Assembly (NCBI GenBank): GCA_963749395.1
Contig: CAVVMT010000019.1
Coordinates: forward strand, 5,934-69,933
Length of the DNA stretch: 64,000 nucleotides
Direction: 5' to 3'
DNA from: Vulcanimicrobiota bacterium
GTDB taxonomy: Bacteria > Vulcanimicrobiota > Vulcanimicrobiia > Vulcanimicrobiales > Vulcanimicrobiaceae
The position numbers and the translations under genes are program-made. Positions 9,477-58,159 of this stretch are shown here, one piece after another (position 1 is the first letter of the stretch; every line of letters starts with the position of its first letter). The notes below the pieces were generated by a model. That model did no database searches. It was not told the origin of the DNA and saw only the letters and a program-made list of their open reading frames with translations.

Positions 9477-9597
9477 CGAGAGGCGTCGTCGCCCCCGGGG
9501 CGCGGCGGTGCGCCGGGACGCACAGTCCGCGAGCACCTGCAGGCGCCCCCACAACGGGCTCCGTAGTGCCGAAGTGCACCCGGAGGAGGATCCCGTC

Positions 9598-14241: not shown

Positions 14242-14286
14242 ACATAAAGCATAGTACGACTTGCGTACAATGTAAAGCGTCTAATG

Positions 14287-14310
14287 GCCCGCAGCGGCGG
14301 GGTTTTTTGC
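14287..14310 (+). terminator. second, plus-oriented terminator-like hairpin resembling the tRNA terminator
   Basis: CCCGC-AGCG-GCGGG followed by GTTTTTTGC. It shares the 12-nt core CGGCGGGGTTTT with 13606-13617. No plus-strand gene lies upstream except the tRNA. Confidence 0.4.
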
Positions 14311-14675
14311 ATTTGGGCGTGGCGCGGGCGTCGACGGCTCACCCGCGACACGGGTGACCGGCCCGAGCCGGCTCCGGATGTACTTCGGTGGCGAACGCGA
14401 TGTCGTCGGCGAACTCCGCGCACTTCCCCTTCGCGTCCGCCGCTGGAAGTGCCGCCGCCGAGCCGCGGATGATACCACCGGCCGAACATCGGCGCGGAGA
14501 CCGCGATACTCTCGTAAACCGTTCGGATCCAAGCCGCGCCCCGCGGATCGGCGTCGAGAAGCGCTTTCACGCCCGCGTACTTCGTATGGAAGTCGAAGAG
14601 ACTCGGCACGCCGCGGCGGACGAATTCGTGCAGCGATGCATCGGCCGGCATCAGCCCGAAGCGCGGTGGCGCATA

Positions 14676-14690
14676 CGAAAATGAATATCA
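14676..14690. promoter_or_regulatory. Fur-family (Zur-like) box candidate
   Basis: CGAAAATGAATATCA matches the actinobacterial-type Zur box TGAAAATGATTTTCA at 12/15 positions (as recalled). It lies upstream of the amidohydrolase-COG0523 operon. The palindrome is weak. Confidence 0.3.
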
Positions 14691-14818
14691 TAGCGACCTT
14701 GCCACCATCTGGGACAGCGATAACGAAAAGTTTCACGCTGTCCACGATCCTCTACTGCAAAACCTGGTATGATCTTTCTGATACGATCGGCGTTGCTACA
14801 GAAGGACGGTTTCGCACC

Positions 14819-18029: not shown

Positions 18030-18065
18030 ATCCGTTTGCTAATCTGTTCGACGAAGGAGCCGCCG

Positions 18066-19832
18066 ATGTGCCGAGCCTGCGTGACTTCCCTCATCACCGA
18101 TCACCTGACCGCGGGCCTCTGGCGAGCCGCGCCGAGCCGGCGCCGCTTCTTAGCCTACGGCGCTGCGGCGAGCGTCGCGGCGGCTGACATTGCGACGGGC
18201 CGCGAGGCCCGTGCGGCCGACGGCGCGGAGGCGATCTTTCGGAACGGGACGATCTATCCCATGACTGCCGGCGAGCGTCCGGTCGAGGCGCTCGCGATCG
18301 GCGGCGGAAAGGTTCTCGCCGCCGGATCGGCCTCCGACGTGTCGCCTCTCATGCGCCCCCAGACCCAGATCATCGACCTTGCGGGCCGCGTCGCGTTTCC
18401 GGGGTTCATCGACCCGCACCATCATACCGTTCTCTCCGCGCTGTTCGCCGATCTGCTGCTCAACGTCGGCTACCCGAAATACGCGGATCGCGCCGCTGCG
18501 CTCGCTGCCGTGAAAGCGGCGGTCGCGAAGACGCCGCCGGGCCAATGGATCCGCGCCGGTTATTACGACAATCTCTTGCAAGGCGGCGATCTGTCGATGG
18601 CGGCGCTCGACGCGATCTCGACCCAGCATCCGATTTTCGTCTTCTACGTGAACGGACACGTCGGCGCTGCGAACGCCTTGGCGTTCACGCTCGCGAAAAT
18701 TCCGCAGAATGTCGGCGAACTGCCCGGCGGCGGCCATTTCGGCCGCGCGCCTGACGGCAAATTGAACGGCCTGATCTACGAAGAACCAGCGTTGCTGCGC
18801 TTCGTCGCCGTCGCGGCTCCGCCCGTCACGCCTGCGCTGATCGCAAAAGCGCTGGCAACCTATACGAAACAGGCGGCCGCCACCGGCAACACGACGCTGC
18901 ACGAGCCCGGCACCATCAAGCCCGAGTGGGTCGATCAGCTGGCGAAACTGTCCAACACGCTCGCCGTGCGGATGAGCGCGAGCCTGAGCACGGCATCGGT
19001 CGAGGAAAGCAAGGCGTTCGCGTCGCTCGGGCCCGGTGCCAAAGCAAGGCACATCCCGAATAGCCGGTTTTCGTTGTATGGCATGAAATTCTGGGCCGAC
19101 GGCTCGAACCAAACCGAGAGCGCGGCGCAGACGAAGCCGTACCTGCACACCACCAACAAAGGCAACGCGAACTACTCCGCATCCGGGATGGCTGCGCTGT
19201 GCGTGTCGGCCAAGAACGCCGGGTGGCCGATCTTGATCCACTGTCAAGGCGATGCGGCAATCGACGACGCACTCGACGCGATCGAGCAGGCTTATGGCGC
19301 GCATCCGGCCACTGGGCTCAACCTGGTGGAACATGCGACGATGGCGCGTCAGGACCAGCTCGACCGCATGAAGCGGCTCGGCGTAGAGCCGAGTTTCCTG
19401 CCGGACCTCTTGTACTTGTACGGCGCGGCCTTTCGCGACCAAATCTTTGGGCCGGAGCGAGCCGAATTCATGGAGCCCATGGCCGCGTGCGTGAAGGCCG
19501 GCATTCCGTTCTCCGTGCACACCGACTCGCCGGTCTCACCGGCCGGTCCGCTGCGCCTGGCGCAGATTGCCGTTACCCGCCGGTGTTTCGTCGACAAATC
19601 GGTCATCGGCGGCGACCAGGCGATCTCGATCTCACAAGCGTTGAAGGCGATCACGATCCACGCCGCACGGCAGATCGGTCTCGAGGATTCGATCGGCACG
19701 CTCGAGCCGGGCAAGGAAGCCGATCTGACGATCCTCGAGAGCGATCCCAACAAGGTGAGCCCGGACGCGATCTCCACCGTCAAGGTCAGCGAAACGTGGG
19801 TCGCCGGCGAGCGGAAATTCAGCGCTGGATGA
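18066..19832 (+). CDS. metal-dependent amidohydrolase (Amidohydro_3), Tat-signal-bearing paralogue
   Basis: AAGGAG upstream of ATG 18066. Twin-arginine motif SRRRFLAYGAAAS, FPGFIDPHHHT, ETWVAGE. About half of residues are identical to the gene at 9598..11313, by eye. Confidence 0.85.
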   Translation: MCRACVTSLITDHLTAGLWRAAPSRRRFLAYGAAASVAAADIATGREARAADGAEAIFRNGTIYPMTAGERPVEALAIGGGKVLAAGSASDVSPLMRPQTQIIDLAGRVAFPGFIDPHHHTVLSALFADLLLNVGYPKYADRAAALAAVKAAVAKTPPGQWIRAGYYDNLLQGGDLSMAALDAISTQHPIFVFYVNGHVGAANALAFTLAKIPQNVGELPGGGHFGRAPDGKLNGLIYEEPALLRFVAVAAPPVTPALIAKALATYTKQAAATGNTTLHEPGTIKPEWVDQLAKLSNTLAVRMSASLSTASVEESKAFASLGPGAKARHIPNSRFSLYGMKFWADGSNQTESAAQTKPYLHTTNKGNANYSASGMAALCVSAKNAGWPILIHCQGDAAIDDALDAIEQAYGAHPATGLNLVEHATMARQDQLDRMKRLGVEPSFLPDLLYLYGAAFRDQIFGPERAEFMEPMAACVKAGIPFSVHTDSPVSPAGPLRLAQIAVTRRCFVDKSVIGGDQAISISQALKAITIHAARQIGLEDSIGTLEPGKEADLTILESDPNKVSPDAISTVKVSETWVAGERKFSAG

Positions 19833-21462: not shown

Positions 21463-22899
21463 TCACTCAGCGTCTTCGACGTCTTCGTGCCGGCGGCTGA
21501 CCGCTTCCCCGTCCTCGGCTCGCAGGCGCCAGAAGACAGCACTGGATAATGCGGTCCACCCGCCCAGGACCAGAAACGCTTCGTGGACCCCGTGCATGAA
21601 TTGCTCCGGGTTTCCGCGCAGGCTCGGCGGGATGAAGAATGCGGTCGTGAGTCCGGCGACGGCGACGCCGAAACTGATCGACAGCTGCTGCAGCGTGCTG
21701 GCGAGCGAGCTGGCACTGCTGGTGCGTTGCGGCGGGACATCCGCATACACGAGCGTGTTCATGCTCGTCATCTGCAACGACTGAAAGGCGCCGTAGCAAG
21801 CCGCCTGCACGACGATCAGCCACGCGGGCGTGCCGCGTCCGACGGTCGCAAATAGCATCAGGATCAGTCCGATGACGACGGTGTTGGAGATCAGCACCAT
21901 GCGGTAGCCGAGCCGGCTCAAGATGCGCGGCAGCACGAACTTGGTGCACAGCGCGGCCATCGCCTGCGGCACGATCAGCAGGCCGGATTGAATCGGCGTG
22001 TATCCAAGCCCGATTTGATAGAGCAGCGGCAACAGAAACGGCATCCCGCCGACCCCGAGGCGCGTCAAGAATCCGCCGCTCACCGCCGAGCTGAACGTAC
22101 GAATGCGGAAGAGCGTCAATGCGAGGAGCGGGTGGGCGGATCGCGCGGCGTAGAGGCAGTAGCCGACGATCAGCAGCACCGATAGCGCCGTGAGCCCCAG
22201 AATCTCGACGGCGCTCAACGTGTGGTCGCCGAAAACTTCGAGCACGTACGACAGCAACGCGACGCCGGAACCGAACAGAATCAACCCGACGACGTCGAGC
22301 GGCTTGGTGTTCCGATCGCGGTAGTCCGGCAAGTTCAGATAGACGAGGATCAACCCGGCGATCCCGATCGGCAGATTGACGAAGAAGATGAAGCGCCAAT
22401 TCAAATAGGCGACGATCAGGCCGCCCGCAAGCGGCCCCAGCATCGGGCCGACCAACGCCGGGATCGCGACGAAACTCATCGCGCCGATCAGTTCGGATTT
22501 ATCGAACGTGCGCACCAGCGTCAGGCGCCCCACCGGCACCATCATCGCGCCGCCGAGGCCCTGGAGCACGCGGCACGCGACCAGCAGGTGGATGTCGCTG
22601 CAAAGCCCGCACAGGACGGAGCCGAGCGTGAACGTCCCGATCGCCCACGCGAACACGTTGCGCGTTCCGAAGCGGTCGGCCATCCAACCGCTGATCGGAA
22701 TGAACACCCCGAGACTCAGCGCGTAGCTGGCGAGCACGGCCCGCATGGCCAGCGGCGCCACGTGGAGCGCGGCGGAAACGACCGGCACCGCAGTGTTGAG
22801 GATCGTCTGATCCAGCTGCTGCATGAAGAACGCAACCGCGACCAGCCACGGGAGAAACGCCTTGCTTGCGAGGGCCGGCCTTGAAGGCAACGCGGTCAC
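21463..22899 (-). CDS. MFS transporter (DHA2 / EmrB-QacA type, about 14 TM)
   Basis: LDQTILNTAVP, GWMADRFGTRNVF, LQGLGGAMMVPVGR. 478 aa. Confidence 0.9.
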   Translation of the reverse strand: MTALPSRPALASKAFLPWLVAVAFFMQQLDQTILNTAVPVVSAALHVAPLAMRAVLASYALSLGVFIPISGWMADRFGTRNVFAWAIGTFTLGSVLCGLCSDIHLLVACRVLQGLGGAMMVPVGRLTLVRTFDKSELIGAMSFVAIPALVGPMLGPLAGGLIVAYLNWRFIFFVNLPIGIAGLILVYLNLPDYRDRNTKPLDVVGLILFGSGVALLSYVLEVFGDHTLSAVEILGLTALSVLLIVGYCLYAARSAHPLLALTLFRIRTFSSAVSGGFLTRLGVGGMPFLLPLLYQIGLGYTPIQSGLLIVPQAMAALCTKFVLPRILSRLGYRMVLISNTVVIGLILMLFATVGRGTPAWLIVVQAACYGAFQSLQMTSMNTLVYADVPPQRTSSASSLASTLQQLSISFGVAVAGLTTAFFIPPSLRGNPEQFMHGVHEAFLVLGGWTALSSAVFWRLRAEDGEAVSRRHEDVEDAE

Positions 22900-23121: not shown

Positions 23122-23153
23122 GTATACTTCTTTCGTATACGGCGATGGTATAC
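23122..23153. promoter_or_regulatory. three phased GTATAC boxes (candidate GntR-type operator array)
   Basis: GTATAC at 23122, 23135 and 23148, exactly 13 bp apart, in the MFS | TcuA-like divergent intergenic region of a high-GC genome. Confidence 0.45.
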
Positions 23154-23190: not shown

Positions 23191-24717
23191 GTGATGATTG
23201 TCCGACTTTCCGAGCGTGCCGACGTCGTCGTCGTCGGGGCTGGGAATGCCGCGTTGGCTGCGGCCGCGGCGGCGCGGCAAGCGGGGGCGCGTGTCGTCGT
23301 GCTCGAGAAGGCCAGTCGCGCCGAACGCGGCGGGAACACGAAGTTCTCGGGAGGGCTCTTTCGCGTGCCGTTCGACACCATCGATGAGCTCGCGCCGCTG
23401 GTGCGCGGCAACGCCGATCCGAACGCGGTCGTGGTCGAGCCGTACCGCAAGAGCGACTACCTCGCCGACTTCGAGCGCATCTGCCAAGGGCGCTTCGATC
23501 GCGACCTGGTCGCCGTGCTGATCGACCGTGCTTACGACGCGATGCTCTGGATGGCCGGTCTCGGCGTGCGCTTCAACTTCAACGTCCTCGGATCGCTCGT
23601 GCGCGACGACGCGGGGCGGCGCAAGATCCCGTTCGGTGCCGCGATCCGCGCTCTCGACGACGGCCATAGCCTATCGGACGACTGGTTTCGCATCGTCGAA
23701 GGCTTGGGCGTCGATGTCCGCTACGAGCACGCGGTCGTCGCCCTGACGCCGGCCTCGGGCGATTCGCCGGCCCGGGTCGACGTGGAGACGCCCGCGGGCC
23801 GGCGTTCGCTCGAGGCCGGCGCGATCGTCTTGGGGAGCGGCGGGTTCGGCTCGAACCCGGCGCTGCGCGCGCAGCACATGGGCCCGCAGTGGGAGCACGT
23901 CAAGGTGCGCGGCACCCGCCACAACACGGGCGAAATGCTCGAAGCAGCGATCGGGGCCGGCGGCGAGCCGTACGGCGAATGGCCGGGCGCCCACGCGACG
24001 CCGATCGATGCCGAAGCGCCGCCGTACGGCGATCTCGTCATGACCGACAAGACGAACCGGCTCTCGTATCCCTTCAGCGTGATGGTCAACGTCGCGGGCG
24101 AACGGTTCGTCGACGAGGGCGAGAACGTCAAGCTCTTCACCTACGCGAAGACCGGGCGCGCGGTGCTCGCGCAGCCGCAGGGAATCGCGTTCCAAATCTT
24201 CGATGCGAAAGTGACGCACTTGCTCGAGCCACGGTACAAGACCGCCGCCCCGATCGTCGCGCAAACGCTCGAGGAGCTCGCCGACGGCATCGTCGCACGC
24301 TGGCCCGAAGCCGGCTTCGACCGAACGCGCTTCCTCGAAACGATGCGCACGTACAACGCCGCGGTCGGCGACGGTACGTTCTACCCCGACGCGAAGGACG
24401 GCAAAGCGACGCGCGGCCTCGTGCCGGAGAAGACGAATTGGGCCCAGCGCATCGATACGCCGCCGTACGCGGCGTACTCGGCGTCGTGCGGCCTGACGTT
24501 CACCTTCGGCGGCGTGCGCACCGACACCGAGGCACGAGTCGTCGACGCGTCGGGCACTCCGATCGCCGGCGTGTTCGGGACGGGCGAAATCCAAGGCGGA
24601 TTTTTCTTCTTCAACTATCCGGGCGGCGCCGGACTCGTGCGCGGGGCCGTGTTCGGCCGGATCGCGGGCGTAAACGCCGCCCGGTATGCGAGCGCGAGCG
24701 TGGGGGCCGCGGTATGA
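23191..24717 (+). CDS. FAD-dependent tricarballylate-dehydrogenase-like flavoprotein (TcuA-like), copy 1
   Basis: DVVVVGAGNAALAAAAAARQAGARVVVLEKA..RGGNTKFSGG. About 508 aa, fumarate-reductase-type FAD fold. Confidence 0.8.
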   Translation: MMIVRLSERADVVVVGAGNAALAAAAAARQAGARVVVLEKASRAERGGNTKFSGGLFRVPFDTIDELAPLVRGNADPNAVVVEPYRKSDYLADFERICQGRFDRDLVAVLIDRAYDAMLWMAGLGVRFNFNVLGSLVRDDAGRRKIPFGAAIRALDDGHSLSDDWFRIVEGLGVDVRYEHAVVALTPASGDSPARVDVETPAGRRSLEAGAIVLGSGGFGSNPALRAQHMGPQWEHVKVRGTRHNTGEMLEAAIGAGGEPYGEWPGAHATPIDAEAPPYGDLVMTDKTNRLSYPFSVMVNVAGERFVDEGENVKLFTYAKTGRAVLAQPQGIAFQIFDAKVTHLLEPRYKTAAPIVAQTLEELADGIVARWPEAGFDRTRFLETMRTYNAAVGDGTFYPDAKDGKATRGLVPEKTNWAQRIDTPPYAAYSASCGLTFTFGGVRTDTEARVVDASGTPIAGVFGTGEIQGGFFFFNYPGGAGLVRGAVFGRIAGVNAARYASASVGAAV

Positions 24718-26114
24718 GCGCCCCCGCGGTTGAGGCGCCGACCAATCCGTACACCAAGCGCATGGCCCGATTCGTCTCCGGCCTGCGCTATGAAAACATT
24801 CCCGCGAACGTGCGCCACCGGATCAAGCTGCTGATCCTCGACTCGTTCGGGTGCGGGCTTTACGGCGCGCAGTTACCGTGGAGCAAGATCCTCGCCCAGA
24901 CGCTGGCGTCGGTCGACGACACGCGCACGTGCTCGGTGTGGGGCACGGGGCTCAAGCTGAGCTCGCCCCACGCGGCGCTCGCGAACGGCTCGCAGGTGCA
25001 AGGCTTCGAGCTCGACGACGCTCACCCGTACGGCGTCCTGCACGTCGGGGCGGTGACGCTGTCGCCGATCGTCGCGCTCGTCGATTCGGGCACGAAGCTT
25101 ACCGGCAAGGACTTCCTCACCGCGGCGGTCGCGGGCTACGAAGTCGGTCCGCGCGTCGGGCTGTGCATGAATCCCGAACACATCGCGCAGGGATGGCACT
25201 CGGCCGGCACGGTCGGCGTGTTCGCCGCCGCTGCCGGTGCGGCGCGGGCCCTGGAACTCGATGAAGAGCAAACCGTGCACGCGCTCGGGATCGCCGGGAC
25301 GCAAGCCGCCGGGTTGATGGCGGCGCAGTTCGGCGCGATGGTCAAGCGGATGCATTCGGGCCGCTCGGCGCAGAGCGGACTCTACGGCGCACTGCTCGCC
25401 AAGAACGGCTTCACCGGGATCCAAAACGTCTTCGAGAGCGAGTACGGCGGCTTCTGCACGACGTTCTCGCGTTCGACCGACCGCTTCGACATGGAGCGGT
25501 TGATCGCGGGCTTCGACCAGACGTGGGAGACGCTGCGGATCGGGCTCAAGTTCTACTCGTGCGTGATGAGCAATCACACCGCGCTCGACGGCGTGCGCGA
25601 GCTGCGCGCGCAGCATCCGTTCGGCCCTGATGACGTCGCCCGGATCGTCGTCGAGGGCTCGTACGTCACGGTCGAACACGCCGGCTGGCGTTACGTCCCC
25701 AACGGGATGACGGCCGCCCAGTTGAACCTGCCGTTCTGCATCGCGACCTTGCTCTACGAGAACGACGTCTTCGTCGATCAGTTCACGCCCGAAACGATCG
25801 TCGATCCCCAAAAGATCGCGCTCGCGCATCGGGTCGAGGTCGTGGAGGATCCAGAGATCACGGCAGCGGGCCGCGAACGGCGGCACGCGGTCAAGCTCGC
25901 GATCGAGCTGAAGGACGGCACGTTGCTGCGCACTGCGGTCGAAACGCAGCGCGGCAGCGACCGCCGTTTCGCGAGCGACGCCGACATCGTCGAGAAGTTC
26001 GAGAAGCTCGCGCGTCACGGGGTCGCGGCGGAGCGCGTCGGGACGATTCGCGACCTGGTCCTCAACCTCGAGGAGCTCGGCGACGCCTCCGAGTTGACCC
26101 GTCTCTTGGCCTGA
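24714..26114 (+). CDS. MmgE/PrpD family protein, copy 1
   Basis: MARFVSGLRYENIPANVRHRIKLLILDSFGCG. 466 aa. ATG overlaps the upstream stop (ATGA). Confidence 0.85.
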   Translation: MSAPAVEAPTNPYTKRMARFVSGLRYENIPANVRHRIKLLILDSFGCGLYGAQLPWSKILAQTLASVDDTRTCSVWGTGLKLSSPHAALANGSQVQGFELDDAHPYGVLHVGAVTLSPIVALVDSGTKLTGKDFLTAAVAGYEVGPRVGLCMNPEHIAQGWHSAGTVGVFAAAAGAARALELDEEQTVHALGIAGTQAAGLMAAQFGAMVKRMHSGRSAQSGLYGALLAKNGFTGIQNVFESEYGGFCTTFSRSTDRFDMERLIAGFDQTWETLRIGLKFYSCVMSNHTALDGVRELRAQHPFGPDDVARIVVEGSYVTVEHAGWRYVPNGMTAAQLNLPFCIATLLYENDVFVDQFTPETIVDPQKIALAHRVEVVEDPEITAAGRERRHAVKLAIELKDGTLLRTAVETQRGSDRRFASDADIVEKFEKLARHGVAAERVGTIRDLVLNLEELGDASELTRLLA

Positions 26115-26151
26115 AAGGCACAAACACCGGTAGCGCGTGGAGGGATATCGG

Positions 26152-27675
26152 ATGAATGCGAAACGGACCTATGACGTGATCGTGATCGGTGCCGGCAACG
26201 CGGCCTTTGCCGCCGCGGTCGCCGCACGCGAGCGCGGGTGCGACGTTCTCGTCTTGGAAAAGGCCGACGAGAAAACGCGCGGCGGCAACACGCGCTTCAC
26301 GGGCGGCATCTTCCGCTGCGTGTATCGCGGGCTGGACGATCTGATGCCGCTGATCGGCAAGCACGGCGATCCGGCGAAGGTGATCGTCGATCCATATCCG
26401 CGCGAAGCCTTTCTCGCCGATCTCGAACGCGTGACCGGCGGCCGCAACGATCCGGAACTGAGCGCGATCTTGGTCGACCGCTCGTACGAAACGGTCCGGT
26501 GGATGGCCGGTCTGGGCATCGAGTGGGAGTTCGGCAAAGTCGTCGGCGCGGCGATGATCCCCGGCACCGACAAGATGCAGCTCTCGTTCGGGGCCGCTCT
26601 GCGCTCGTATCACGAAGGCGTCGGCTTGTCGGCCGGATGGTTCGCGGTGGCCGGCGAGCGGGGCATCGAAGTCCGCTATCAGGCGCAAGCGATGCGGTTG
26701 CTCACCGACAACGGGCGCGTTAACGGCGTCATGGTGCGCACGAACGACGGCATTGAAGAATTGCACGCCAGCGCCGTCGTGCTCGGCAACGGCGGATTCC
26801 AAGCCAGCCCCGAGATGCGCACCGCGTACTTGGGCCCGGCGTGGAGCACGGTGAAGGTGCGCGGCACGCGTTACGATACCGGCGAACTGACGCGTGCGGC
26901 GTTCGAGTTAGGCGCGGCGTCGGCCGGCCAGTGGTCGGGCTGTCATGCGACCCCGATCGACGCGGACGCGCCGGAGTACGGGGAGTTGCGCCTGACCGAC
27001 AAGACGAACCGCCTCTCGTATCCCTACTGCGTGATGATCAATCTCGACGGCGAGCGATTTCTCGACGAAGGGGTCGACTTCAACACGTACACGTACGCGA
27101 AGTACGGTGGTGAAATTCTGAAGGAACGCGGCGGGATCGCATTCGAGATCTTCGATCAGCAGACGATCGGGAATCTCGAACCACGATATAGCACCGGCGT
27201 CCCGGTAGTGGCCGACACGTTCGCCGGCCTGGTCGACGGGATCGAACGGCGCTTCGGCAAGCATGGGTTCAACAAGGCCGCGGCGCTGGCGACGCTCGCG
27301 CAATACAACGAGGCGGCCAACGACCCGACGCCGTTCAATCCGACGGTGCTCGACGGAAAACGCACGACCGGTCTAGGGATCGAGAAGACGAACTGGGCGA
27401 CCCGCCTCGAGAAGCCGCCGTACGTCGCCTATGCGGTGACCGGCGGCATCACGTTTACCTTCGGCGGCCTGCGGATCGACACCGAAGCGCGCGTGATCGA
27501 TCTGGCAGGGCGGCCGATCCGCGGGCTGTTCGCGAGCGGCGAGAACACCGGCGGGTTCTTCTACGTGAATTATCCGGCCGGCGCAGGGCTCACCCGCGGC
27601 GCCGTGTTCGGGCGCATCGCCGGCAACGGGGCGGCGTCGCTCGTAGAGGAGCGAACGGCCGCCCCCGCGCGCTGA
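26152..27675 (+). CDS. TcuA-like FAD flavoprotein, copy 2
   Basis: GGAGGG upstream of ATG 26152. YDVIVIGAGNAAFAAAVAARERGCDVLVLEKA..RGGNTRFTGG. About 50 percent identical to copy 1, by eye. Confidence 0.8.
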   Translation: MNAKRTYDVIVIGAGNAAFAAAVAARERGCDVLVLEKADEKTRGGNTRFTGGIFRCVYRGLDDLMPLIGKHGDPAKVIVDPYPREAFLADLERVTGGRNDPELSAILVDRSYETVRWMAGLGIEWEFGKVVGAAMIPGTDKMQLSFGAALRSYHEGVGLSAGWFAVAGERGIEVRYQAQAMRLLTDNGRVNGVMVRTNDGIEELHASAVVLGNGGFQASPEMRTAYLGPAWSTVKVRGTRYDTGELTRAAFELGAASAGQWSGCHATPIDADAPEYGELRLTDKTNRLSYPYCVMINLDGERFLDEGVDFNTYTYAKYGGEILKERGGIAFEIFDQQTIGNLEPRYSTGVPVVADTFAGLVDGIERRFGKHGFNKAAALATLAQYNEAANDPTPFNPTVLDGKRTTGLGIEKTNWATRLEKPPYVAYAVTGGITFTFGGLRIDTEARVIDLAGRPIRGLFASGENTGGFFYVNYPAGAGLTRGAVFGRIAGNGAASLVEERTAAPAR

Positions 27676-27697
27676 CCACCCGGAGTTTGGAGCAACG

Positions 27698-29056
27698 ATG
27701 GTTTCGACGTTAACCGAGCGTTTTGTCGATTGCGCGCGCGGCGTTCGTTACGACGATCTGCCGCGCGCGGCGATCGACATGGCCAAGGCAGTCGCCCTCG
27801 ATGGGCTCGGCGTGACCGTCGCGGGCTCCGACGAGCCGCTCGGTTTGGGGCGCATCGTCAAGCAGTACGTTCGTGAGAATGCCGGCAGCGGAGTTGCGAC
27901 CGTCGTCACCGGCGGCTTCAAGGCGTCGCCGGCCGAAGCCGCCTTCGCCAACGGGACGATGGCGCACGCGCTCGACTTCGACAACACGTGGTACCCGCTC
28001 AACCATCCGACCTCGCCGACGCTGCCGGCGATCTTGGCGGTCGCGGAGCATCGCGGGCTGGCGGGGAAGGCGGTCGTCGAGGCGATCGTCGTTGCGTTCG
28101 AAGTGCAGGGGCGCCTGCGGCTCGCGGCCCACGGCCTCGAGACGGGGAAGCGGTTCCATAAGCCGGGGACCACGGGGCTCTTCGGCGCGACTGCGGGCGT
28201 CGCAAAGCTGCTGAACCTCGACCGCAATCAGTGGCTCATGGCGTTCGGGCTCGCGGGCTCGCGGGCCGGCAGTCTCTCGATCAACACCGGCACGATGACG
28301 AAGTCGTCGCATTCGGGCCACGGCGCGCGCATGGGGGTCGAGTGCGCGGTGCTGGCCTCGATGGGCTGGACGGCGGCGTCCGACGTCTTCGGACCCAATG
28401 GCTTCTTCGACGCATTCTCCCCTGGGAACGCCGAGCCGGCGCTGATCGTCGAGGGCTTCGGTGCCCCGTTCCGGATGGTCGAACCCGGCGTGGGGTTCAA
28501 GAAGCATCCCAGCAACTATTTCACCCACCGGCCGATCGACGCCGCGCTCGCATTGCGTCGCGAGCACAACATCGACCCGGCCGACGTCGAGCGGGTCGAG
28601 GTCCGATTTCCACGCTTTCCGTACGTCGACCGGCCGCAGCCGCAGACCGGGCTGGACGGCAAGTTCAGCGTGCAGTACACGACCAGCGTGGCGCTGCTCG
28701 ACGGCGGGGTCGAAGTCGATTCGTTCACGAACGAGCGCCGCTTCGCGGCCGACGCCGTCGCGATGCTGCCGCGCGTGCACGTGATCTTCGACGACACGAT
28801 CCCAGCGGACTTCGACCGCATGCACGTCGACCTGAAGGTGGTGCTGCGCGACGGGACGATATTCGAGAAACGCGTGCAGGAGCTGACGGGGTGGGTCGGC
28901 TTTCCGCTGACGCGCGAACAGAGGCTCGACAAGTTCTACCGCTGCACCCGCCGCCTCATCGGCGAAGATCGCGCGCGAGCTGCGGTCGGGCTCGTGGAAA
29001 CGCTCGAAGAGCAGCCGGACGTGCGCGCGCTCATGGACCTGTTGCGCGACGGTTGA
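27698..29056 (+). CDS. MmgE/PrpD family protein, copy 2
   Basis: LTERFVDCARGVRYDDLPRAAIDMAKAVALDGLGVTVAG. 452 aa. Confidence 0.85.
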   Translation: MVSTLTERFVDCARGVRYDDLPRAAIDMAKAVALDGLGVTVAGSDEPLGLGRIVKQYVRENAGSGVATVVTGGFKASPAEAAFANGTMAHALDFDNTWYPLNHPTSPTLPAILAVAEHRGLAGKAVVEAIVVAFEVQGRLRLAAHGLETGKRFHKPGTTGLFGATAGVAKLLNLDRNQWLMAFGLAGSRAGSLSINTGTMTKSSHSGHGARMGVECAVLASMGWTAASDVFGPNGFFDAFSPGNAEPALIVEGFGAPFRMVEPGVGFKKHPSNYFTHRPIDAALALRREHNIDPADVERVEVRFPRFPYVDRPQPQTGLDGKFSVQYTTSVALLDGGVEVDSFTNERRFAADAVAMLPRVHVIFDDTIPADFDRMHVDLKVVLRDGTIFEKRVQELTGWVGFPLTREQRLDKFYRCTRRLIGEDRARAAVGLVETLEEQPDVRALMDLLRDG

Positions 29057-29086: not shown

Positions 29087-30511
29087 TTAGCACATGAGGG
29101 CTTGCTGCAACGACGCGACCTCGACGCGATTGCATCCCGCCGCTTTGGCACGATACATCGCCGCGTCGGCGCGCGAGACGGCCGCCGACCAATCCCGGTC
29201 GCCGGAGAGCATCGGCGCCACGCCGATGCTGACGCTGAAGTTGAAGGCGCCGAGCGGAGATGCGATCGGCAGGCCGGCGATCGTCGACCGGATCCGCTCC
29301 GCCATGAGCTGCGCCCCGGGCACGCGTGTGTGCGTGAGCAGCACGACGAACTCCTCACCGCCGAACCGGGCCGGCAAATCGGTGGCGCGCGCGATCGACT
29401 TGAGAACCGACGCCAGCGCCGTCAGCGCACGGTCGCCGGCTTCGTGCCCGTGCGTGTCGTTCACGTGCTTGAAGCGATCGATGTCGATCATCAGTAACGC
29501 GCTCGCCGTGCCGTGCCTCTTGATCCGCGCCAGTTCGTTCTGCATGGCCTCCGTGAGGGCACGCCTGTTCGCCAACGCCGTGAGCGGATCGGTGCGCGCC
29601 AGCTCTTGGAATCGCTCGTTCAGCGTTTCCAACTCGGTGACCGTCAGCCGGAGCTGATCCTCGAGCGCGTGGCGATAGGTGACGTCGCGCGCGACCCCCA
29701 GGATGCCGATCGGGGCACCGGCTGCGTCGCGCAACGGCGTTCTGATCGTCTCCACCCACGCTCGACGGCCGTCGCCCGCGTAGGTCAGGGTTTCTTCCAC
29801 GACGTCCAAGTTGGAATGCAGTGCCGCCAGATCGCGCTCGCGAAACGCATCCGCGAGCTCGAAGTCGATGAAGTCGCGGTCCGTTTTGCCGACGATCTGC
29901 ATCCGGGTCGCGCCGAAGAAACGTTCGAAGGCCGGGTTGCACTCCCGATAGACTCCGTTGAGGTCTTTGAGCCAGAGCAAGTCGGGGATCATCGTGATGA
30001 TCGTCCGGAGTTGCTTCTCGACCTGGCGCATCGAGTCGTTCGACGTTCGCAACTGCTCCAACGTTTCGCGCAGCCGTCTGGTCGCCTCGATGCGCGCCGT
30101 GATGTCGGTGAACACGGCAAAAACGTGCTGAACCGTACCGTCGCCGCCGGCCAGTCGAGCCGTGTTGACGCTGATCCAGCGCGGGCGATGCGCCCCATGC
30201 CGGATGCCCATGACCACGCCGTGGCAGGGCTCTCCACTGCGAAGCGTGACGGCCGCGGGATGGTCGTGTGCGGGGAACGGCGATCCGTCTTCGTGGACCG
30301 TCACGCAATCGACGTCGTACGACGTACGCCCTATGAGGTGCTCCTCCGAAAGCCCGAGCATCGCCGTCGCGGAGGCATTGCACAGGACGATCCGCCCGTC
30401 AGCGCCGTGGACGACGATCCCCTCCGCTGCGACGCGCAGCAGGCTTTCGAGAAATGTCCGTTCGACTTTTTGCAAGATGATGTCCGAACCCCAATCGAGC
30501 CGCACCCGCAC
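29087..30511 (-). CDS. PAS-PAS-GGDEF diguanylate cyclase
   Basis: Two PAS-like segments, then [12 protein letters not shown] and the active-site motif [11 protein letters not shown]. Confidence 0.9.
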
Positions 30512-30867: not shown

Positions 30868-32265
30868 GTGATAGTCAGCCTGTCCGCGCAGCTTGCGGAA
30901 TTTTGCACGACGGTTGCGAGCGGCGACATACCTACGGAGGTTCGTGCTCGGGCGCGGGAGCTCGCGCTCGACTTTCTCGCGGTCGTTGCCCGCGCGAGCC
31001 TCGCTCCTTCGAGCGCGATGATCCGCAACGCCGCGCGCGCGTTGTCCACCCAAGGCCCGTGCGCCGTCATCGGCGCGGGCTACACGCTCGCACCGCAGGC
31101 TGCGGCACTGGCGAACGGCGGCACCGCGCACGCGATCGAGATGGACGACGTCACCGAGCTGTCGTCGCTCCATCCCGGCGTCGTCGTCTTCCCCGCCGCT
31201 TTGGCCATGGCGCAGGCCACGGAGGCGAGCGGCGCGGCGTTCTTGACCAGCGCGATCCTGGGATACGAGGTCATCGGCCGCTTGGGCAACGCGATCAACG
31301 TCAAATCGCACTATGCCCAAGGCTTTCATCCGACCGCCACCTGCGGCACTTTTGCGGCGGCCGCCATCGCCGCGCGCCTGCTGCGCTTGAGCGCGGAGCG
31401 AGCGACGCACGCGCTCGCGATCGCCGGGAGCATGGCCGCCGGCTCGATGCAGTACATGGATAACGGTTCGCTGGTCAAGCGCATGCATCCGGGCATGGCC
31501 GCGCACGCCGGGATCGTCGCGGCCCTGATGGCGGCCGAAGGGATCACCGGCCCGCGTGAGATTTTCGAGGGGGCGCACGGGTTCTTGCACGCGTACTCGG
31601 ACACAACGCATCCCGAGCGGATCCTCGCCGGTCTGGGCGCGGTTTGGGAAGTGAGCGAGACCGCCATCAAGCCGCACTCGTGCTGCCGTCACAATCACGC
31701 TGCCATCGACGCGCTACTCGACGTCGTGAACGCGCACGACCTCGTTGCCGACCAGATCGCGGCGATTCGGGTGGAGATTCCCGCGAGCAGCATCCCGATC
31801 GTCGCCGAGCCGCACGCGATCAAACACGATCCGCGGAGCGTCGTCGACGCGCAATTCAGCTTGCCGTATGCGCTGGCGGTCGCCGCCCGCTTCCGGCGTG
31901 CGTTGCTGCCCGAGTACCGCGAGGAGGCCATCTTCGACCCGGGCGTGCGGCGGCTCTTGGGGGTCGTCGAGTGCCGGCCGGCGGCGGACCTCGATGCCGT
32001 GTTCCCGGCAACGTGGCCCGCGCGGGTCGCGGTGGAACTGCACGACGGGCGCTGCTTCGCCGCGGCAGCGGCGAACGCCAAGGGAAGTCCCCGCAATCCA
32101 CTCGGCGCCGCCGAGTTGCGGGCGAAGGTTCACGGGCTTCTGGACGGTATCGTTTCGTCTGCGGCCGCGGCGTCGCTGATCGATGCGGCGGAGCGGATCG
32201 ACGATCTGCCCCGCGTCGACGCGCTCGTCGCGCCCCTGCTCGGACGGCCGGCGGTGCCGGCATGA
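30868..32265 (+). CDS. MmgE/PrpD family protein, copy 3
   Basis: GGAGGA, 6 nt, then GTG 30868. LSAQLAEFCTTVASGDIPTEVRARARELALDFLAV and HAIEMDDV. Confidence 0.8.
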   Translation: MIVSLSAQLAEFCTTVASGDIPTEVRARARELALDFLAVVARASLAPSSAMIRNAARALSTQGPCAVIGAGYTLAPQAAALANGGTAHAIEMDDVTELSSLHPGVVVFPAALAMAQATEASGAAFLTSAILGYEVIGRLGNAINVKSHYAQGFHPTATCGTFAAAAIAARLLRLSAERATHALAIAGSMAAGSMQYMDNGSLVKRMHPGMAAHAGIVAALMAAEGITGPREIFEGAHGFLHAYSDTTHPERILAGLGAVWEVSETAIKPHSCCRHNHAAIDALLDVVNAHDLVADQIAAIRVEIPASSIPIVAEPHAIKHDPRSVVDAQFSLPYALAVAARFRRALLPEYREEAIFDPGVRRLLGVVECRPAADLDAVFPATWPARVAVELHDGRCFAAAAANAKGSPRNPLGAAELRAKVHGLLDGIVSSAAAASLIDAAERIDDLPRVDALVAPLLGRPAVPA

Positions 32266-33527
32266 CGGCGATGACGATGACGGAGAAAATCTTGGCGAGC
32301 CACGCCGATCGCGACGTGGTTCGTCCCGGCGATCTGGTGCAGGTCCGCGTCGATCAGACGTACAGCGACGATCTCGGAGCGCCGATTTCGATCGGGATAT
32401 TGCGCGAGTACGGTATCACCAAGGTGTTCGATCCCGAGCGCGTGTTCTTGACGCCGATGGTCAACACGCCGAGCAAGAGCGCGACCGTCGCCAACACGGT
32501 GAAGCTGATGCGCGATTTCTGCCGGGAGATGGGCATCGAGCGGTTCTTCGCCGACGGCGCGCAAGCGATCCACAACGTCGCGGCGATCGAGCGCGGTCTG
32601 GTGCTCCCCGGCGAGCTGCTCGCCGGCGGTAACTCACACGCGTGCACCGGGGGCGGCGTCGGCGCGTTTGCGACCGGCATCGGTTCGACCGACGTCGCCG
32701 CGGTACTGGCCACCGGGCGAACGTGGTTCCGCGTTCCGGCGACGATCCGCTTCAATTATCACGGGCAGCTTGCGCCGTGGGTGACGGGCAAGGACCTGAT
32801 GCTGGCGACGATCGGCAAGATCGGGGTCGCCGGCGCGCTCGGATGCGCGATGGAGTTCGGCGGTGAAGCGATCGGGGCGCTCTCGGTCGAGGAACGGTTC
32901 GCGTTGCCGAACATGGCGGTGGAAGCCGGGGCGCTCAACGGGATCATCGAGCCCGACGACGCGATGCTCGCATACGTTTCCGACCGCGCGCAACGGCCGT
33001 TCACGCCCGTCTATGCGGATGCAGGTGCCGAGTACGTGGCGGTGCACGACATCGACGCGGGGGCAGTTACGCCGGTCGTGGCGCTGCCGAGCAAGCCGAG
33101 CAATGCGAGGCCGGTCGCCGAGATCGGCCGTATCGCGATCGATCAAGTCTACATCGGTTCGTGCACGAACGGCTGGCTGACCGACATGCGCGCGGCTGCG
33201 GAGATCCTGCGCGGGCGCAAGGTGGCCGAGACCGTGCGGCTGATCGTCATTCCGAGCACGAGCGACATCTACAAACAATGCCTCCGCGAGGGCATCGCCG
33301 AGATCGTGACCGACGCCGGTGGCGTGTTCAGCCCCACGACCTGCGGCCCGTGCATCGGGGCGCACATGGGCGTGCTCGGCGACGGCGAGCGCTGCGTCTC
33401 GACCTCGAACCGCAACTTCGTCGGGCGTCAGGGTTCGCCCACGGCGGAGACCTACTTGACGAACCCGTGGGTTGCCGCTGCCTCGGCCGTCCTCGGGTAC
33501 ATCGGTTCACCCGACGAGTTGAGGTAA
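32262..33527 (+). CDS. aconitase-family dehydratase large subunit (LeuC / homoaconitase-like)
   Basis: MTEKILASHA..., GNSHACTGGGVGAFATGIGSTD, IGSCTNG, CGPCIG. ATG overlaps the upstream stop (ATGA). Confidence 0.85.
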   Translation: MTAMTMTEKILASHADRDVVRPGDLVQVRVDQTYSDDLGAPISIGILREYGITKVFDPERVFLTPMVNTPSKSATVANTVKLMRDFCREMGIERFFADGAQAIHNVAAIERGLVLPGELLAGGNSHACTGGGVGAFATGIGSTDVAAVLATGRTWFRVPATIRFNYHGQLAPWVTGKDLMLATIGKIGVAGALGCAMEFGGEAIGALSVEERFALPNMAVEAGALNGIIEPDDAMLAYVSDRAQRPFTPVYADAGAEYVAVHDIDAGAVTPVVALPSKPSNARPVAEIGRIAIDQVYIGSCTNGWLTDMRAAAEILRGRKVAETVRLIVIPSTSDIYKQCLREGIAEIVTDAGGVFSPTTCGPCIGAHMGVLGDGERCVSTSNRNFVGRQGSPTAETYLTNPWVAAASAVLGYIGSPDELR

Positions 33528-33533
33528 GCGCGC

Positions 33534-34046
33534 ATGTTCGAGGGGAACGCCTGGGTGTTCGGCGACGACGTCGACACCGACGTCATCATCCCGGCGAAGT
33601 ATCTGGTCACGTGGGACCCGGCGACGCTGGCCGCACGCTGCTTCGAGGGTGTGGATCCAAGCCTGGCCGCGCGGATCGCCCCAGGCGATATCGTGATCGC
33701 CGGCAAGAACTTCGGCTGCGGAAGTTCGCGCGAGCACGCGGCGATCGCGATGAAAGGGCTGGGCATCAGCTGCGCGATCGCCGTGAGTTACGGCCAGATC
33801 TTCTACCGCAACAGCTTCAACCTCGGCATCCCGCTGCTCGAAGCCGACATCCCGGCCGGCGCGATCCGGACCGGCGATCGCCTCACGGTCGACCTGTCGA
33901 GCGGCGCCGTTTGCAACCTGAGCGGTGACGCTGCCTTCACGGCCGCGCCGATTCCCGGCTTCATGCGCGAATTGATCGCAGCCGGCGGGCTCATGCCCTA
34001 CGTCGTGCGGTCGCTCGAACGCGAAGCGCCCGGAGGTGTTTCATGA
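33534..34046 (+). CDS. aconitase-family dehydratase small subunit (LeuD-like)
   Basis: GDDVDTDVIIPAKYL and GKNFGCGSSREHA. 170 aa. Confidence 0.85.
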   Translation: MFEGNAWVFGDDVDTDVIIPAKYLVTWDPATLAARCFEGVDPSLAARIAPGDIVIAGKNFGCGSSREHAAIAMKGLGISCAIAVSYGQIFYRNSFNLGIPLLEADIPAGAIRTGDRLTVDLSSGAVCNLSGDAAFTAAPIPGFMRELIAAGGLMPYVVRSLEREAPGGVS

Positions 34047-35047
34047 CGACCGTCTCGCGCAAAACCGCCATGGCCTCCGCGGCCGTGTTCGCGACGATCA
34101 ACGTCGTGCGCGCGCCCGCGCAGGCAGCGCAGTTCCAGTACAAGATGGGGTCCAACGTCCCGATCGACGATCCGCGCAACACCGGCGCGGTGACGATGTG
34201 GAAGAACGTGTACGCGCAGTCGGGTGGCCGGCTCGACGTCAAGCTCTATCCCAATGCGATCCTCGGCGGCGACACGGCGATGCTCTCGCAGGTGCGCTCG
34301 GGCGCGCTCGAGTTCATGTCGATCTCCGCCGGCATCCTCGGGGTCGTGGTGCCCGTCAGCCAGATCGCCGACGTGCCGTTCGCGTGGAAGTCGGAGGCGG
34401 TGGCCCTGGGAGCGTTCGACGGCGCGCTCGGCGAGTACGTCCGCGGCGAAATCGCCGCCCGGGGTTTGGTCCCGATGCCGCGCATGCTCGACAGCGGGTT
34501 CCGCCAGGTGACGACCTCGACCAAAGCGATTCGCACCGCCGACGACCTGGCGGGGATCAAGATCCGGGTCCCCAATTCGAAGCTGTGGGTCGATCTGTTC
34601 CGCTCGCTCGGAGCCGTGCCGGCCGCGTTCGACGTGAACGAACTGTACACTGCGATGCAGACGAAAGCCGTCGACGGCGAAGAGAACACGTACCACGCGA
34701 TCGAGTCGCTCCACTTCTTCGAGGTGCAAAAGTACCTGAGCATCACGAACCACATCTGGGACGGGGTGTGGGTCGTCGCCAATCCGGAGGCTTGGAAAGC
34801 GCTCGACCCCGATCTGCAGAAGATCGTGCAGATCAACATGAACGCCTTTGCGCTCGCGCAGCGGCGCGAGAACCTGCTCTTCAACAACGCGGTGGCCGAC
34901 AAGCTCCAGCGGCAGGGTCTGCTCGTCAACACCGCCGACGCCGCCACGTTCCGAGCCAAGCTAGGCGGCTTCTATCCGCACTGGAAGTCGGAGTTCGGCT
35001 CGCAGGCGTGGGACCTCTTGGAGCGCTACGCCGGGCGTCTCGGTTAG
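34043..35047 (+). CDS. TRAP transporter substrate-binding protein (DctP family), no DctQM partner nearby
   Basis: Signal peptide, then DctP-like motifs: LGGDTAMLSQVRSGALEF, GIKIRVPNS, NELYTAMQTKAVDGEEN. ATGA overlap with the LeuD-like gene. Confidence 0.85.
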   Translation: MTTVSRKTAMASAAVFATINVVRAPAQAAQFQYKMGSNVPIDDPRNTGAVTMWKNVYAQSGGRLDVKLYPNAILGGDTAMLSQVRSGALEFMSISAGILGVVVPVSQIADVPFAWKSEAVALGAFDGALGEYVRGEIAARGLVPMPRMLDSGFRQVTTSTKAIRTADDLAGIKIRVPNSKLWVDLFRSLGAVPAAFDVNELYTAMQTKAVDGEENTYHAIESLHFFEVQKYLSITNHIWDGVWVVANPEAWKALDPDLQKIVQINMNAFALAQRRENLLFNNAVADKLQRQGLLVNTADAATFRAKLGGFYPHWKSEFGSQAWDLLERYAGRLG

Positions 35048-36095: not shown

Positions 36096-36468
36096 GCGCG
36101 TCCCTCCGTCGTGCTCGCTTGCTCATCTTTTTAAGCACGTAGCACGCGCTTCCTCGCCGCCGGGGAGACGAGGGAGCAAACTTCCGCGACTCCCCCGACT
36201 GTGACGCGAGACACCATAATGCGCAATTTGGACAGTCGTATGACCGGCAGAATACCCAGCGCCGTAGCGCGGGTCCCTTGCGACATCAGGGATTCTTACT
36301 TCAATGGCAAAAAGTTCGGGTGCGCCGTAAATTGATGGGGGTGGCAATGGGCGTCGCACCGCTTGTAAGGGTTTACAGTCGTCGCTGCTCGAGGGGACCG
36401 AGCGCCCGCGACAACCGGGTTTGCTCGTGCCGGCGTGCGGATCGCAACGCAGCGGATCGGTTACCGTC

Positions 36469-56790: not shown

Positions 56791-56794
56791 CGGC

Positions 56795-58144: not shown

Positions 58145-58159
58145 GGGCCGGCGCCCGGC

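Follow-up and report, generated by a model that had tools for sequence, protein, structure and literature searches.

TcuA is a flavin adenine dinucleotide (FAD)-dependent dehydrogenase that converts tricarballylate to cis-aconitate. In Salmonella, the tcuRABC genes supply this enzyme together with TcuB, an Fe-S/haem FADH2:quinone oxidoreductase, and TcuC, an importer of the major facilitator superfamily (MFS); the canonical tcuA-tcuB arrangement is documented (PMC10468695). The known substrates of the MmgE/PrpD family have in common a C4 1,4-dicarboxylate backbone on which proton chemistry takes place at C2 (PMC12290011). In the same study, Gonner et al. describe a PrpD-family protein as a (S)-(R)-methylsuccinate isomerase (Msi), the gene of which is reported always to adjoin one for a flavin dehydrogenase. 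Here, we describe a 64,000-nucleotide stretch of DNA from a Vulcanimicrobiota bacterium (the window; contig CAVVMT010000019.1, GC content about 67%) in which two genes for TcuA-like flavoproteins, FP1 and FP2, alternate with two genes for MmgE/PrpD-family proteins, PrpD1 and PrpD2, between positions 23191 and 29056. The window carries two further members of the latter family, PrpD3 and PrpD4. Gene order, family membership, active-site residues, the absence of TcuB across the clade and recurrent gene neighbourhoods were studied. Overall, the recurring FP/PrpD cassette is real, but it is one of several alternative partnerships of the FP clade.

Gene organisation of the FP/PrpD locus

The four open reading frames FP1, PrpD1, FP2 and PrpD2 lie head to tail on the + strand (Table 1). 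FP1 starts at GTG 23191 or ATG 23194 and ends at 24717. The PrpD1 start codon, ATG 24714, lies within the TGA stop of FP1, giving a 4-nucleotide ATGA overlap from which PrpD1 is predicted to be translationally coupled to FP1. FP2 starts at ATG 26152, 3′ to a GGAGGG Shine-Dalgarno sequence. It is followed, after a gap of 22 nucleotides containing GGAG, by the ATG 27698 of PrpD2. All of this agrees with an earlier note on this DNA, which had described the flavoprotein-PrpD-flavoprotein-PrpD order on one strand, the ATGA overlap of the first pair and a gap of about 20 nucleotides with Shine-Dalgarno sequences in the second. Besides the ATGA overlap, the intergenic gaps of the four-gene run measure 22-37 nucleotides. 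No terminator-like site was found on the + strand between the four genes, where the scan did no better than on shuffled sequences. A search of the region for a sigma-70-like promoter gave none, and comparison of a 12-kb region with plasmids by megablast gave no relative.

FP1 and FP2 are 51% identical over 489 amino acids, making them the clear, roughly half-identical paralogues that had been proposed from inspection. PrpD1 and PrpD2 are far more diverged, also as proposed, with 29% identity. A recent duplication of one cassette was considered and rejected, in line with the earlier view that this is not a simple duplication. Indeed, besides the low identity between them, PrpD1 and PrpD2 fall into separate conserved subfamilies and each has homologues of 65-70% identity elsewhere. 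Moreover, another contig (L090) carries orthologues of FP1 (80% identity) and PrpD1 (85%) as a lone pair in which the 4-nucleotide overlap is kept. Because of this lone pair, the arrangement is better understood as two juxtaposed modules than as a duplicated cassette. The overlap, the short gaps, the Shine-Dalgarno sequences and the lack of a terminator-like site on the + strand between the genes argue for a single operon. Our preferred reading, a catabolic operon built from two independently acquired modules, has about an even chance.

The flavoproteins belong to a TcuA-like clade without TcuB

Both flavoproteins carry an FAD_binding_2 domain (PF00890; E=6e-32 and 1e-34) and the N-terminal dinucleotide-binding motif GAGNAA. 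They pass NF006130 (PRK08274), the looser NCBIfam profile for TcuA, with 479 bits for FP1 and 495 bits for FP2, as compared to a cut-off of 369, and fail the TIGR02485 equivalog with 239 and 231 bits, respectively, as compared to a cut-off of 372.55. As positive controls, we used a Salmonella plasmid carrying tcuR-tcuA-tcuB-MFS (L083) and a Martelella plasmid carrying tcuA-tcuB (L089). The TcuB-linked TcuA proteins of these two plasmids reach 687 and 575 bits on TIGR02485, whereas four plasmid-borne homologues devoid of TcuB, from Hydrogenophaga, Haladaptatus, Shinella and Variovorax, score 268-285 bits. Therefore, TIGR02485 splits TcuB-linked proteins (575-687 bits) from a TcuB-less clade (231-285 bits).

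FP1 and FP2 share 32-36% identity with canonical TcuA. When FP2 is aligned to flavocytochrome c3, its residues His265, Tyr315, Thr434 and Tyr474 fall at the fumarate-reductase positions His365, Arg402, His504 and Arg544, respectively. The catalytic Arg402 and the substrate-binding His504 and Arg544/545 of flavocytochrome c3-type enzymes are thus not kept in FP2, and His365 alone is retained. The resulting His/Tyr/Thr/Tyr signature is invariant over 54 clade members, and the Salmonella and Martelella TcuA proteins carry an identical one. Therefore, the FPs are genuinely TcuA-like and not generic fumarate reductases. The profile comparison proposed in the earlier note and the shared signature both uphold its view of the flavoproteins as TcuA-like, as opposed to generic FAD oxidoreductases. 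As compared to TcuA, the FPs have two insertions of about 17 and 10 amino acids and are about 40 amino acids longer overall. In addition, the TcuA motif GGNSQHTRN becomes GGNTRFTGG, a change that may reflect another substrate.

A model of FP2 was obtained with AlphaFold2, with a predicted local distance difference test score (pLDDT) of 82 and a predicted template-modelling score (pTM) of 0.85. Its best matches in the PDB are flavocytochrome c3, urocanate reductase, 3-ketosteroid dehydrogenases (KstD) and cyclohexanone dehydrogenase; no TcuA structure is among the PDB sequence or fold matches. Since a fumarate reductase and urocanate reductase are the nearest solved structures, one may ask whether the FPs work in the reductive direction, as soluble fumarate-reductase-like enoate reductases acting on enoates that the PrpDs would make by dehydration of hydroxy-acids, for detoxification or as an electron sink. 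Related flavoproteins of gut bacteria turn itaconate into methylsuccinate (cited in PMC12290011; bioRxiv 10.1101/2022.12.26.521950). However, the FPs have no haem, flavin mononucleotide (FMN)-binding or twin-arginine (Tat)-signal domain, and no conserved donor gene is found nearby. In addition, Tyr, Thr and Tyr take the place of the catalytic Arg and of the substrate His and Arg of fumarate reductase, as they do in the oxidative TcuA, and importers and C-C lyases, as is usual for catabolic loci, are found among the neighbours. A reductive role is therefore very unlikely.

The window was then compared with the canonical partners of TcuA. Using TcuB from Salmonella and Martelella and TcuC from Salmonella as queries, tblastn gave no match in the 64 kb at E<=1e-3. 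Likewise, no TcuB or TcuC homologue was detected by tblastn in 82 FP loci, searched up to 10 kb on each side where the contig allows. The ferredoxin-type motif CxxCxxCxxxC[PGA] occurs in no open reading frame of the window; the same regular expression flagged one Fe-S/CCG open reading frame in L015, which looks unrelated and has no tblastn match to TcuB. Among the clusters of FP neighbours, no conserved redox partner (electron-transfer flavoprotein, cytochrome or ferredoxin) was found. The MFS gene divergent from FP1 encodes a member of the DHA2/MdtD-type efflux family and not a TcuC-type importer, so that the earlier statement that the window holds no TcuB-like protein and no TcuC-type transporter stands. 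Distant relatives of this MFS protein (25-30% identity) are encoded near FP genes in 5 of the 82 loci, and in two of these (L036 and L040) the MFS gene lies directly upstream of FP-PrpD in the same direction.

The clade is large, with at least 6,358 clusters at 90% identity (E<=1e-20) and 543 clusters at 50% identity (E<=1e-30). Its proteins are routinely named 'tricarballylate dehydrogenase' by the sources, and both PGAP and JGI use the name TcuA. Together with the NF006130 result and the TcuA active-site signature, these names are what one would expect of an ordinary tricarballylate locus, in which FP1 and FP2 would be true tricarballylate dehydrogenases and the genes for TcuB and TcuC would lie in another part of the genome. 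However, both TcuB-linked TcuA proteins easily pass the equivalog that the FPs fail, TcuB and TcuC are missing from the surveyed loci (up to 10 kb on each side) as from the 64-kb window, and the HTRN motif is replaced. Moreover, cis-aconitate enters the tricarboxylic acid (TCA) cycle without any need for PrpD, PrpF or isocitrate lyase (ICL). We thus regard an ordinary tricarballylate locus as highly improbable.

Genes of the methylcitrate type recur next to the flavoproteins

In order to describe the genomic context of the clade, we used 80 loci from a scan of a genome collection and two metagenome loci, containing 88 FP genes in all. Binatia, Dehalococcoidia, Methylomirabilota/Rokubacteria, Nitrospinota, Armatimonadota, Actinomycetota and Alpha- and Betaproteobacteria are among the groups represented. 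Culturable carriers of the FP-PrpD pair include Paraburkholderia xenovorans LB400 (chromosome 2, L066), P. diazotrophica (L070) and Zwartia vadi (L040). Open reading frames were clustered without prior labels before the neighbours of FP were counted, and genes within 400 bp were considered adjacent. PrpD genes are adjacent to 23 of the 88 FP genes and lie within 10 kb of 39. The corresponding numbers are 14 and 20 for PrpF, and 15 and 22 for ICL/phosphoenolpyruvate (PEP)-mutase (PrpB-like) genes. At least one of these three types is adjacent to 47 FP genes and within 10 kb of 56. Among the 23 adjacent PrpD genes, 19 are immediately 3′ to FP on the same strand. In 13 of 18 FP-to-PrpD pairs other than those of the window, the nearest in-frame start is at most 25 nucleotides past the FP stop.

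The sets of genes are varied. In L101 and L102, genes for a Liv-type ATP-binding cassette (ABC) transporter stand together with FP, PrpD and PrpF; an ICL gene is convergent to them and a PrpD-GntR-PrpD group divergent. A Binatia cluster reads FP-ICL-PrpD followed by enoyl-CoA hydratase (ECH) and short-chain dehydrogenase/reductase (SDR) genes, and the Hydrogenophaga plasmid (L085) reads Bug-FP-LeuC-LeuD-Bug-PrpF. In the haloarchaeon Haladaptatus, the order is PrpD-cupin-FP, with one gene between the two partners; this was seen once in archaea. Other recurrent neighbour clusters are SDR, ECH, CoA-transferase III, aldehyde dehydrogenase, acyl-CoA dehydrogenase, amidohydrolases and Bug/TctC. The recurrent enzyme partners PrpD, PrpF, ICL/PrpB-like and LeuCD are all from aconitate/citrate/methylcitrate-type families. 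Two close FP paralogues, in tandem or divergent, were seen in 6 of the 82 loci (L013, L016, L017, L033, L054 and L062), which often also carry ICL and PrpF genes. The FP-PrpD-FP-PrpD order was present in no other locus among those examined.

Four PrpD genes in 64 kb, as well as the fact that PrpD1-like and PrpD2-like genes usually occur without FP, could suggest that FP and PrpD are functionally unrelated neighbours in a PrpD-rich genome. However, PrpD genes less than 400 bp from FP are spread over several phyla, the 19 downstream ones mostly with spacers of at most 25 nucleotides, and FP1-PrpD1 is conserved in L090 down to its overlap. Even if a genome had 10-30 PrpD copies, the estimate for such adjacency by chance is well under 1%. 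FP-PrpD adjacency is thus far above chance, and a coincidence is most improbable, the least credible of the explanations considered.

The earlier note had proposed a recurring dehydrogenase/PrpD cassette. Conservation of the adjacency beyond this genome was indeed observed, in several bacterial phyla and one haloarchaeon, and the recurrence of the pair is therefore confirmed. The idea of a fixed two-enzyme unit does not hold, since only 26% of the FP genes have an adjacent PrpD gene and PrpF, ICL/PrpB-like and LeuCD genes are equally tight partners. The association between FP and members of the PrpD family has evidently arisen many times. The unit is best described as a TcuB-independent TcuA-like desaturase repeatedly recruited into sets of methylcitrate-cycle-like enzymes. 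That the pairing is uncharacterised agrees with the literature searched, in which no description of TcuA with PrpD or MmgE was found.

Active sites of the PrpD proteins

The presence of four PrpD paralogues in the window, which had been noted as unusual, was confirmed by tblastn (Table 1). All four have the MmgE_PrpD_N and MmgE_PrpD_C domains. The nearest solved structures to PrpD1 are those of a B. subtilis IRG1 homologue, iminodisuccinate (IDS) epimerase and cis-aconitate decarboxylase (CAD). In a phmmer search of the PDB, PrpD2 matched CAD over its full length with E=6e-59, as compared to 1e-46 for epimerases. The possibility that PrpD1 and PrpD2 are 2-methylcitrate dehydratases was rejected. 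Indeed, their scores of 31-56 bits on the equivalogs of this enzyme are far from the cut-offs of 458 (TIGR02330), 575 (NF006943) and 950 (NF042438), and none of the PrpD proteins of the window reaches any of these cut-offs.

At the positions of IDS epimerase residues H85, D88, H99, H150, K198 and K266, PrpD2 has H, D, H, H, K and K, and PrpD1 has Q, E, H, H, K and K. The first carboxylate-binding His is thus a Gln in PrpD1, the active-site pattern of which reads Q-E-H..H-I..H-K-K. The second base of the epimerases is a tyrosine, Tyr145 in IDS epimerase and Tyr148 in Msi (PMC12290011). At this position, PrpD1 has Ile157 and PrpD2 has a Thr. Because the catalytic Tyr of the epimerases is replaced in both proteins, one-base chemistry (hydration/dehydration, decarboxylation or a double-bond shift) would most likely be used by PrpD1 and PrpD2, rather than epimerisation. 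In the phmmer alignment with mouse and human CAD, PrpD2 has an Asn at position 277, where CAD has a His that we take to be important for its activity. The same alignment shows that CAD residues H103, H159, K207, K272 and Y318 are kept in PrpD2. In human ACOD1, these five residues bind citraconate (PMC13495696).

PrpD proteins adjacent to FP show at least four active-site types. Proteobacteria, LB400 among them, have an IDS-epimerase-like His-Tyr type, while Gly/Ala-Glu-His...Val-Glu is seen in Dehalococcoidia and His-Glu-His...Ala-Ala in Betaproteobacteria. The fourth type, HDH...xP, is tentatively likened to CAD and comes from Binatia and other groups. Of the 23 FP-adjacent PrpDs, 9, that of P. 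xenovorans included, carry the His-Tyr motif known from IDS epimerase and Msi. This motif, the closeness of IDS epimerase to PrpD1 and PrpD2 among solved structures, and the reportedly constant association of the Msi gene with a dehydrogenase that desaturates the same backbone (PMC12290011) would all fit a role ahead of the dehydrogenase. The PrpDs would then interconvert the isomers of a chiral substituted succinate, by racemisation or isomerisation, and thereby let a stereospecific FP oxidise both of them, as a CoA-free counterpart of Msi and methylsuccinyl-CoA dehydrogenase. For the proteins of the window, the residues argue otherwise: the second catalytic base is Ile157 or Thr, Gln replaces the first carboxylate-binding His in PrpD1, and PrpD2 is nearer to CAD than to the epimerases. 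Epimerisation as the first step is thus unlikely here.

In two further loci (L093 and L094), a PrpD1-like gene (68-69% identity) is the sole enzyme gene of an NMT1-type ABC operon divergent from a large AcnA-like aconitase gene. This layout hints that enzymes of the PrpD1 subfamily may make a substrate for aconitase straight from an imported acid.

Regulation and neighbouring operons

Three GTATAC palindromes precede FP1 (Table 1). GTATAC occurs 7 times in the window as compared to 1.4 expected, a count attained in no shuffle out of 100. In the survey, it was found upstream of 9 of 86 FP genes as compared to 2.3 expected (binomial P ~5e-4). It is also present in GntR-linked promoters of L002 (position 3154), L090 (14999/15010), L101 (3379/3465) and L066 (9832). 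One copy (54644-54649) lies in the divergent promoter region between the GntR/FCD-family gene of the window and the ABC-transporter/PrpD4 operon. This regulator resembles the GntR protein encoded inside the FP/PrpD/PrpF cluster of L101. Moreover, in L002 and L101 the FP gene is immediately preceded by the same Liv-type ABC genes. From these motifs and similarities, the GntR/FCD regulator and its GTATAC operators probably link the FP/PrpD operon to the uptake operon 30 kb away.

Within the uptake operon, the reading frame of the gene for the Liv-type binding protein changes near 56730-56745. The typical C-terminus (GVYLQITDGRVAQVK followed by the stop) is in another frame than the first ~380 codons and stops 4 nucleotides before the start GTG 56795 of PrpD4. 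The change is either a frameshift or an assembly error.

The operon of PrpD3, LeuC-like and LeuD-like genes begins 1.8 kb downstream of PrpD2. By analogy with the Hydrogenophaga cluster, it may supply aconitase-family hydratase steps after FP and PrpD. This combination of a PrpD and a hydratase of the aconitase family is itself uncharacterised. The region further contains Amidohydro_3, CobW and hydantoinase-like genes and may also serve the metabolism of N-substituted carboxylates. Genes for cyclic-di-GMP signalling are interleaved with the catabolic genes.

Table 1. Features of the 64-kb window, with positions counted from its first nucleotide
Feature	Position	Strand	Remarks
Amidohydro_3 genes (several), CobW GTPase, hydantoinase A/B-like genes, Asp/Glu-racemase-family gene	9454-11313, 14285-16321, 18036-19832, 48952-52757, 54766-55617		
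DHA2/MdtD-type MFS transporter	21463-22899	-	Divergent from FP1; pathway role uncertain
Three GTATAC palindromes, 13-nucleotide spacing	23122-23153		40-70 nucleotides 5′ of FP1; probable GntR/FCD operator
FP1, TcuA-like FAD-dependent dehydrogenase, TcuB-independent clade	23191-24717	+	507-508 amino acids; FAD_binding_2, NF006130
PrpD1, MmgE/PrpD-family enzyme	24714-26114	+	MmgE_PrpD_N + MmgE_PrpD_C
FP2, TcuA-like FAD dehydrogenase, FP1 paralogue	26152-27675	+	FAD_binding_2, NF006130; ATG start
PrpD2, MmgE/PrpD-family enzyme	27698-29056	+	MmgE_PrpD_N + MmgE_PrpD_C; nearest characterised relative mammalian CAD
PAS-GGDEF protein	29087-30511	-	Between PrpD2 and the PrpD3 operon
PrpD3-LeuC-LeuD-DctP operon	30868-35047	+	1.8 kb downstream of PrpD2
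PrpD3	30868-32265	+	MmgE_PrpD_N + MmgE_PrpD_C
LeuC-like	32262-33527	+	ATGA overlap with PrpD3
LeuD-like	33534-34046	+	
Orphan DctP binding protein of tripartite ATP-independent periplasmic (TRAP) type	34043-35047	+	No DctQM partner nearby
PAS-GAF-HD-GYP-type protein	36331-38781	+	Further downstream
GntR/FCD-family regulator	53750-54466	-	45% identity to GntR inside the L101 FP/PrpD/PrpF cluster; tblastn E=2e-54
Putative co-regulated uptake operon	54766-61331	+	Asp/Glu-racemase-family, Liv-type binding protein, PrpD4, ABC ATPase and permease genes
Liv-type binding-protein gene	55575-56790		Frame change
PrpD4	56795-58144	+	GTG start; in uptake operon

A possible pathway for substituted succinates

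The C4 1,4-dicarboxylate backbone handled by the PrpD family is the one desaturated by a TcuA-type enzyme. Our preferred reading, held with as much doubt as confidence, is that FP desaturates a substituted succinate or tricarballylate analogue and that its PrpD partner then processes the same backbone. The route would begin with the import of a saturated substituted succinate (a tricarballylate analogue or an alkyl- or carboxyalkyl-succinate), probably via the Liv-type ABC system at 55-61 kb, with which the FP/PrpD operon seems to have the GntR/FCD regulator and the GTATAC operators in common. FP would take two hydrogens across C2-C3, as TcuA does on tricarballylate, to yield a substituted maleate, fumarate or aconitate. 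The PrpD partner would carry out enolate chemistry at C2 of the same backbone; with PrpD1 and PrpD2, this would most likely be a one-base hydration, decarboxylation or double-bond shift, as in CAD or 2-methylcitrate dehydratase, epimerisation being less likely. The product might be passed to aconitase-family hydratases such as those of the PrpD3-LeuCD operon and then to central metabolism. Finally, with no TcuB involved, FADH2 would hand its electrons straight to quinone or O2, or else to an unlinked carrier. Partner-less relatives such as 3-ketosteroid delta1-dehydrogenase and cyclohexanone dehydrogenase, soluble C-C desaturases without an Fe-S partner subunit, give a precedent for TcuB-free reoxidation. 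In this scheme, the substrate class, the order of the reactions, the electron acceptor and the regulon are the predicted parts.

Several points weigh against this route. We know of no substrate or activity for any member of the FP clade. PrpD1 and PrpD2 are both placed in the CAD/IDS-epimerase branch, a long way from 2-methylcitrate dehydratase proper, and this branch has, to our knowledge, no characterised hydratase. In the loci where the FP-adjacent PrpD carries the His-Tyr motif, the logic may instead be that of an epimerase with a dehydrogenase. No PrpF, ICL or HpcH lyase gene is present in the window, where PrpC and PrpB genes were not found either. PrpD1 homologues of 65-70% identity adjoin NMT1-type or TctC transport genes and other PrpD genes, and no FP was seen near them in the flanks examined (6-8 kb on each side). 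PrpD2 homologues (67-70% identity) adjoin TctC, HpcH/HpaI, HMGL-like and ICL genes and no FP. Since the closest homologues of PrpD1 and PrpD2 are mostly without FP, these PrpD enzymes need no FP. Finally, the case for the regulon is built on a motif of 6 bp.

Significance

Thousands of proteins are named tricarballylate dehydrogenase TcuA, and many of them belong to the TcuB-less clade that fails TIGR02485 and has other neighbours. Defining the substrates of the FPs would correct a widespread over-annotation. We tentatively suggest, while holding the opposite to be more probable, that the TcuB-less 'TcuA' proteins make up a distinct family of partner-less desaturases for free substituted succinates, which would act with CAD-like or epimerase-like PrpD, PrpF, PrpB-like and LeuCD proteins in CoA-independent 'reverse methylcitrate-like' pathways. 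If so, candidate substrates would be alkylsuccinates, methyl- or carboxyalkyl-tricarballylates and aminopolycarboxylate fragments, and the pathways would be found in Binatia, Chloroflexota, Methylomirabilota, Proteobacteria and haloarchaea. Both enzyme families would gain new reaction specificities, in addition to a TcuB-free mode of flavin reoxidation. With the substrates defined, the MmgE/PrpD family, poorly characterised with only four or five known activities, would also gain functions. Such work could further uncover CoA-independent routes by which soil and subsurface bacteria handle saturated branched di- and tricarboxylates. The chemistry is as predicted from the two families, and the result is useful rather than paradigm-changing.

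Comparison with known systems

The FP2 model has structural relatives in 3-ketosteroid delta1-dehydrogenase and cyclohexanone dehydrogenase, with a template-modelling (TM) score of ~0.7. However, these enzymes act on ketones and not on carboxylates, and the identity is ~20%. The FP neighbourhoods resemble the methylcitrate cycle in that the partners come from the PrpD, PrpF, ICL/PEP-mutase (PrpB-like) and aconitase/LeuCD families, but FP is no part of that cycle, PrpC, PrpB and PrpF are absent from the window, and its PrpDs stay below the equivalog cut-offs. Mammalian CAD (ACOD1/IRG1) is the best solved match of PrpD2, which shares five active-site residues with it, and its substrate, cis-aconitate, is the product of TcuA. 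PrpD2 differs from CAD by the Asn at position 277 and by being encoded in a prokaryotic catabolic operon.

The pair formed by Msi and (RS)-methylsuccinyl-CoA dehydrogenase in the itaconate cluster of Pseudomonas and Cupriavidus (PMC12290011) likewise places a PrpD-family gene beside a flavin dehydrogenase for a substituted-succinate backbone. PrpD1 and PrpD2 are in the CAD/IDS-epimerase/Msi branch and, apart from a Gln for the first His in PrpD1, retain the carboxylate-binding residues His, Asp/Glu, His, Lys and Lys. In contrast to that cluster, PrpD1 and PrpD2 have no catalytic Tyr and the operon of the window has no CoA-transferase, hydratase or lyase genes. Moreover, the partner of Msi is an acyl-CoA dehydrogenase, whereas FP, a FAD_binding_2 protein of the TcuA type, would be expected to use free acids.

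The tcuRABC system is related through TcuA itself, to which the FPs are linked by their 32-36% identity, the same fold, the His/Tyr/Thr/Tyr residues and the NF006130 profile. They depart from it by failing TIGR02485, by their extra ~40 amino acids and by the altered N-terminal HTRN motif. TcuB, TcuC and TcuR are found neither in the window nor in the 82 loci, where the partners of FP are PrpD, PrpF, ICL or LeuCD genes instead.

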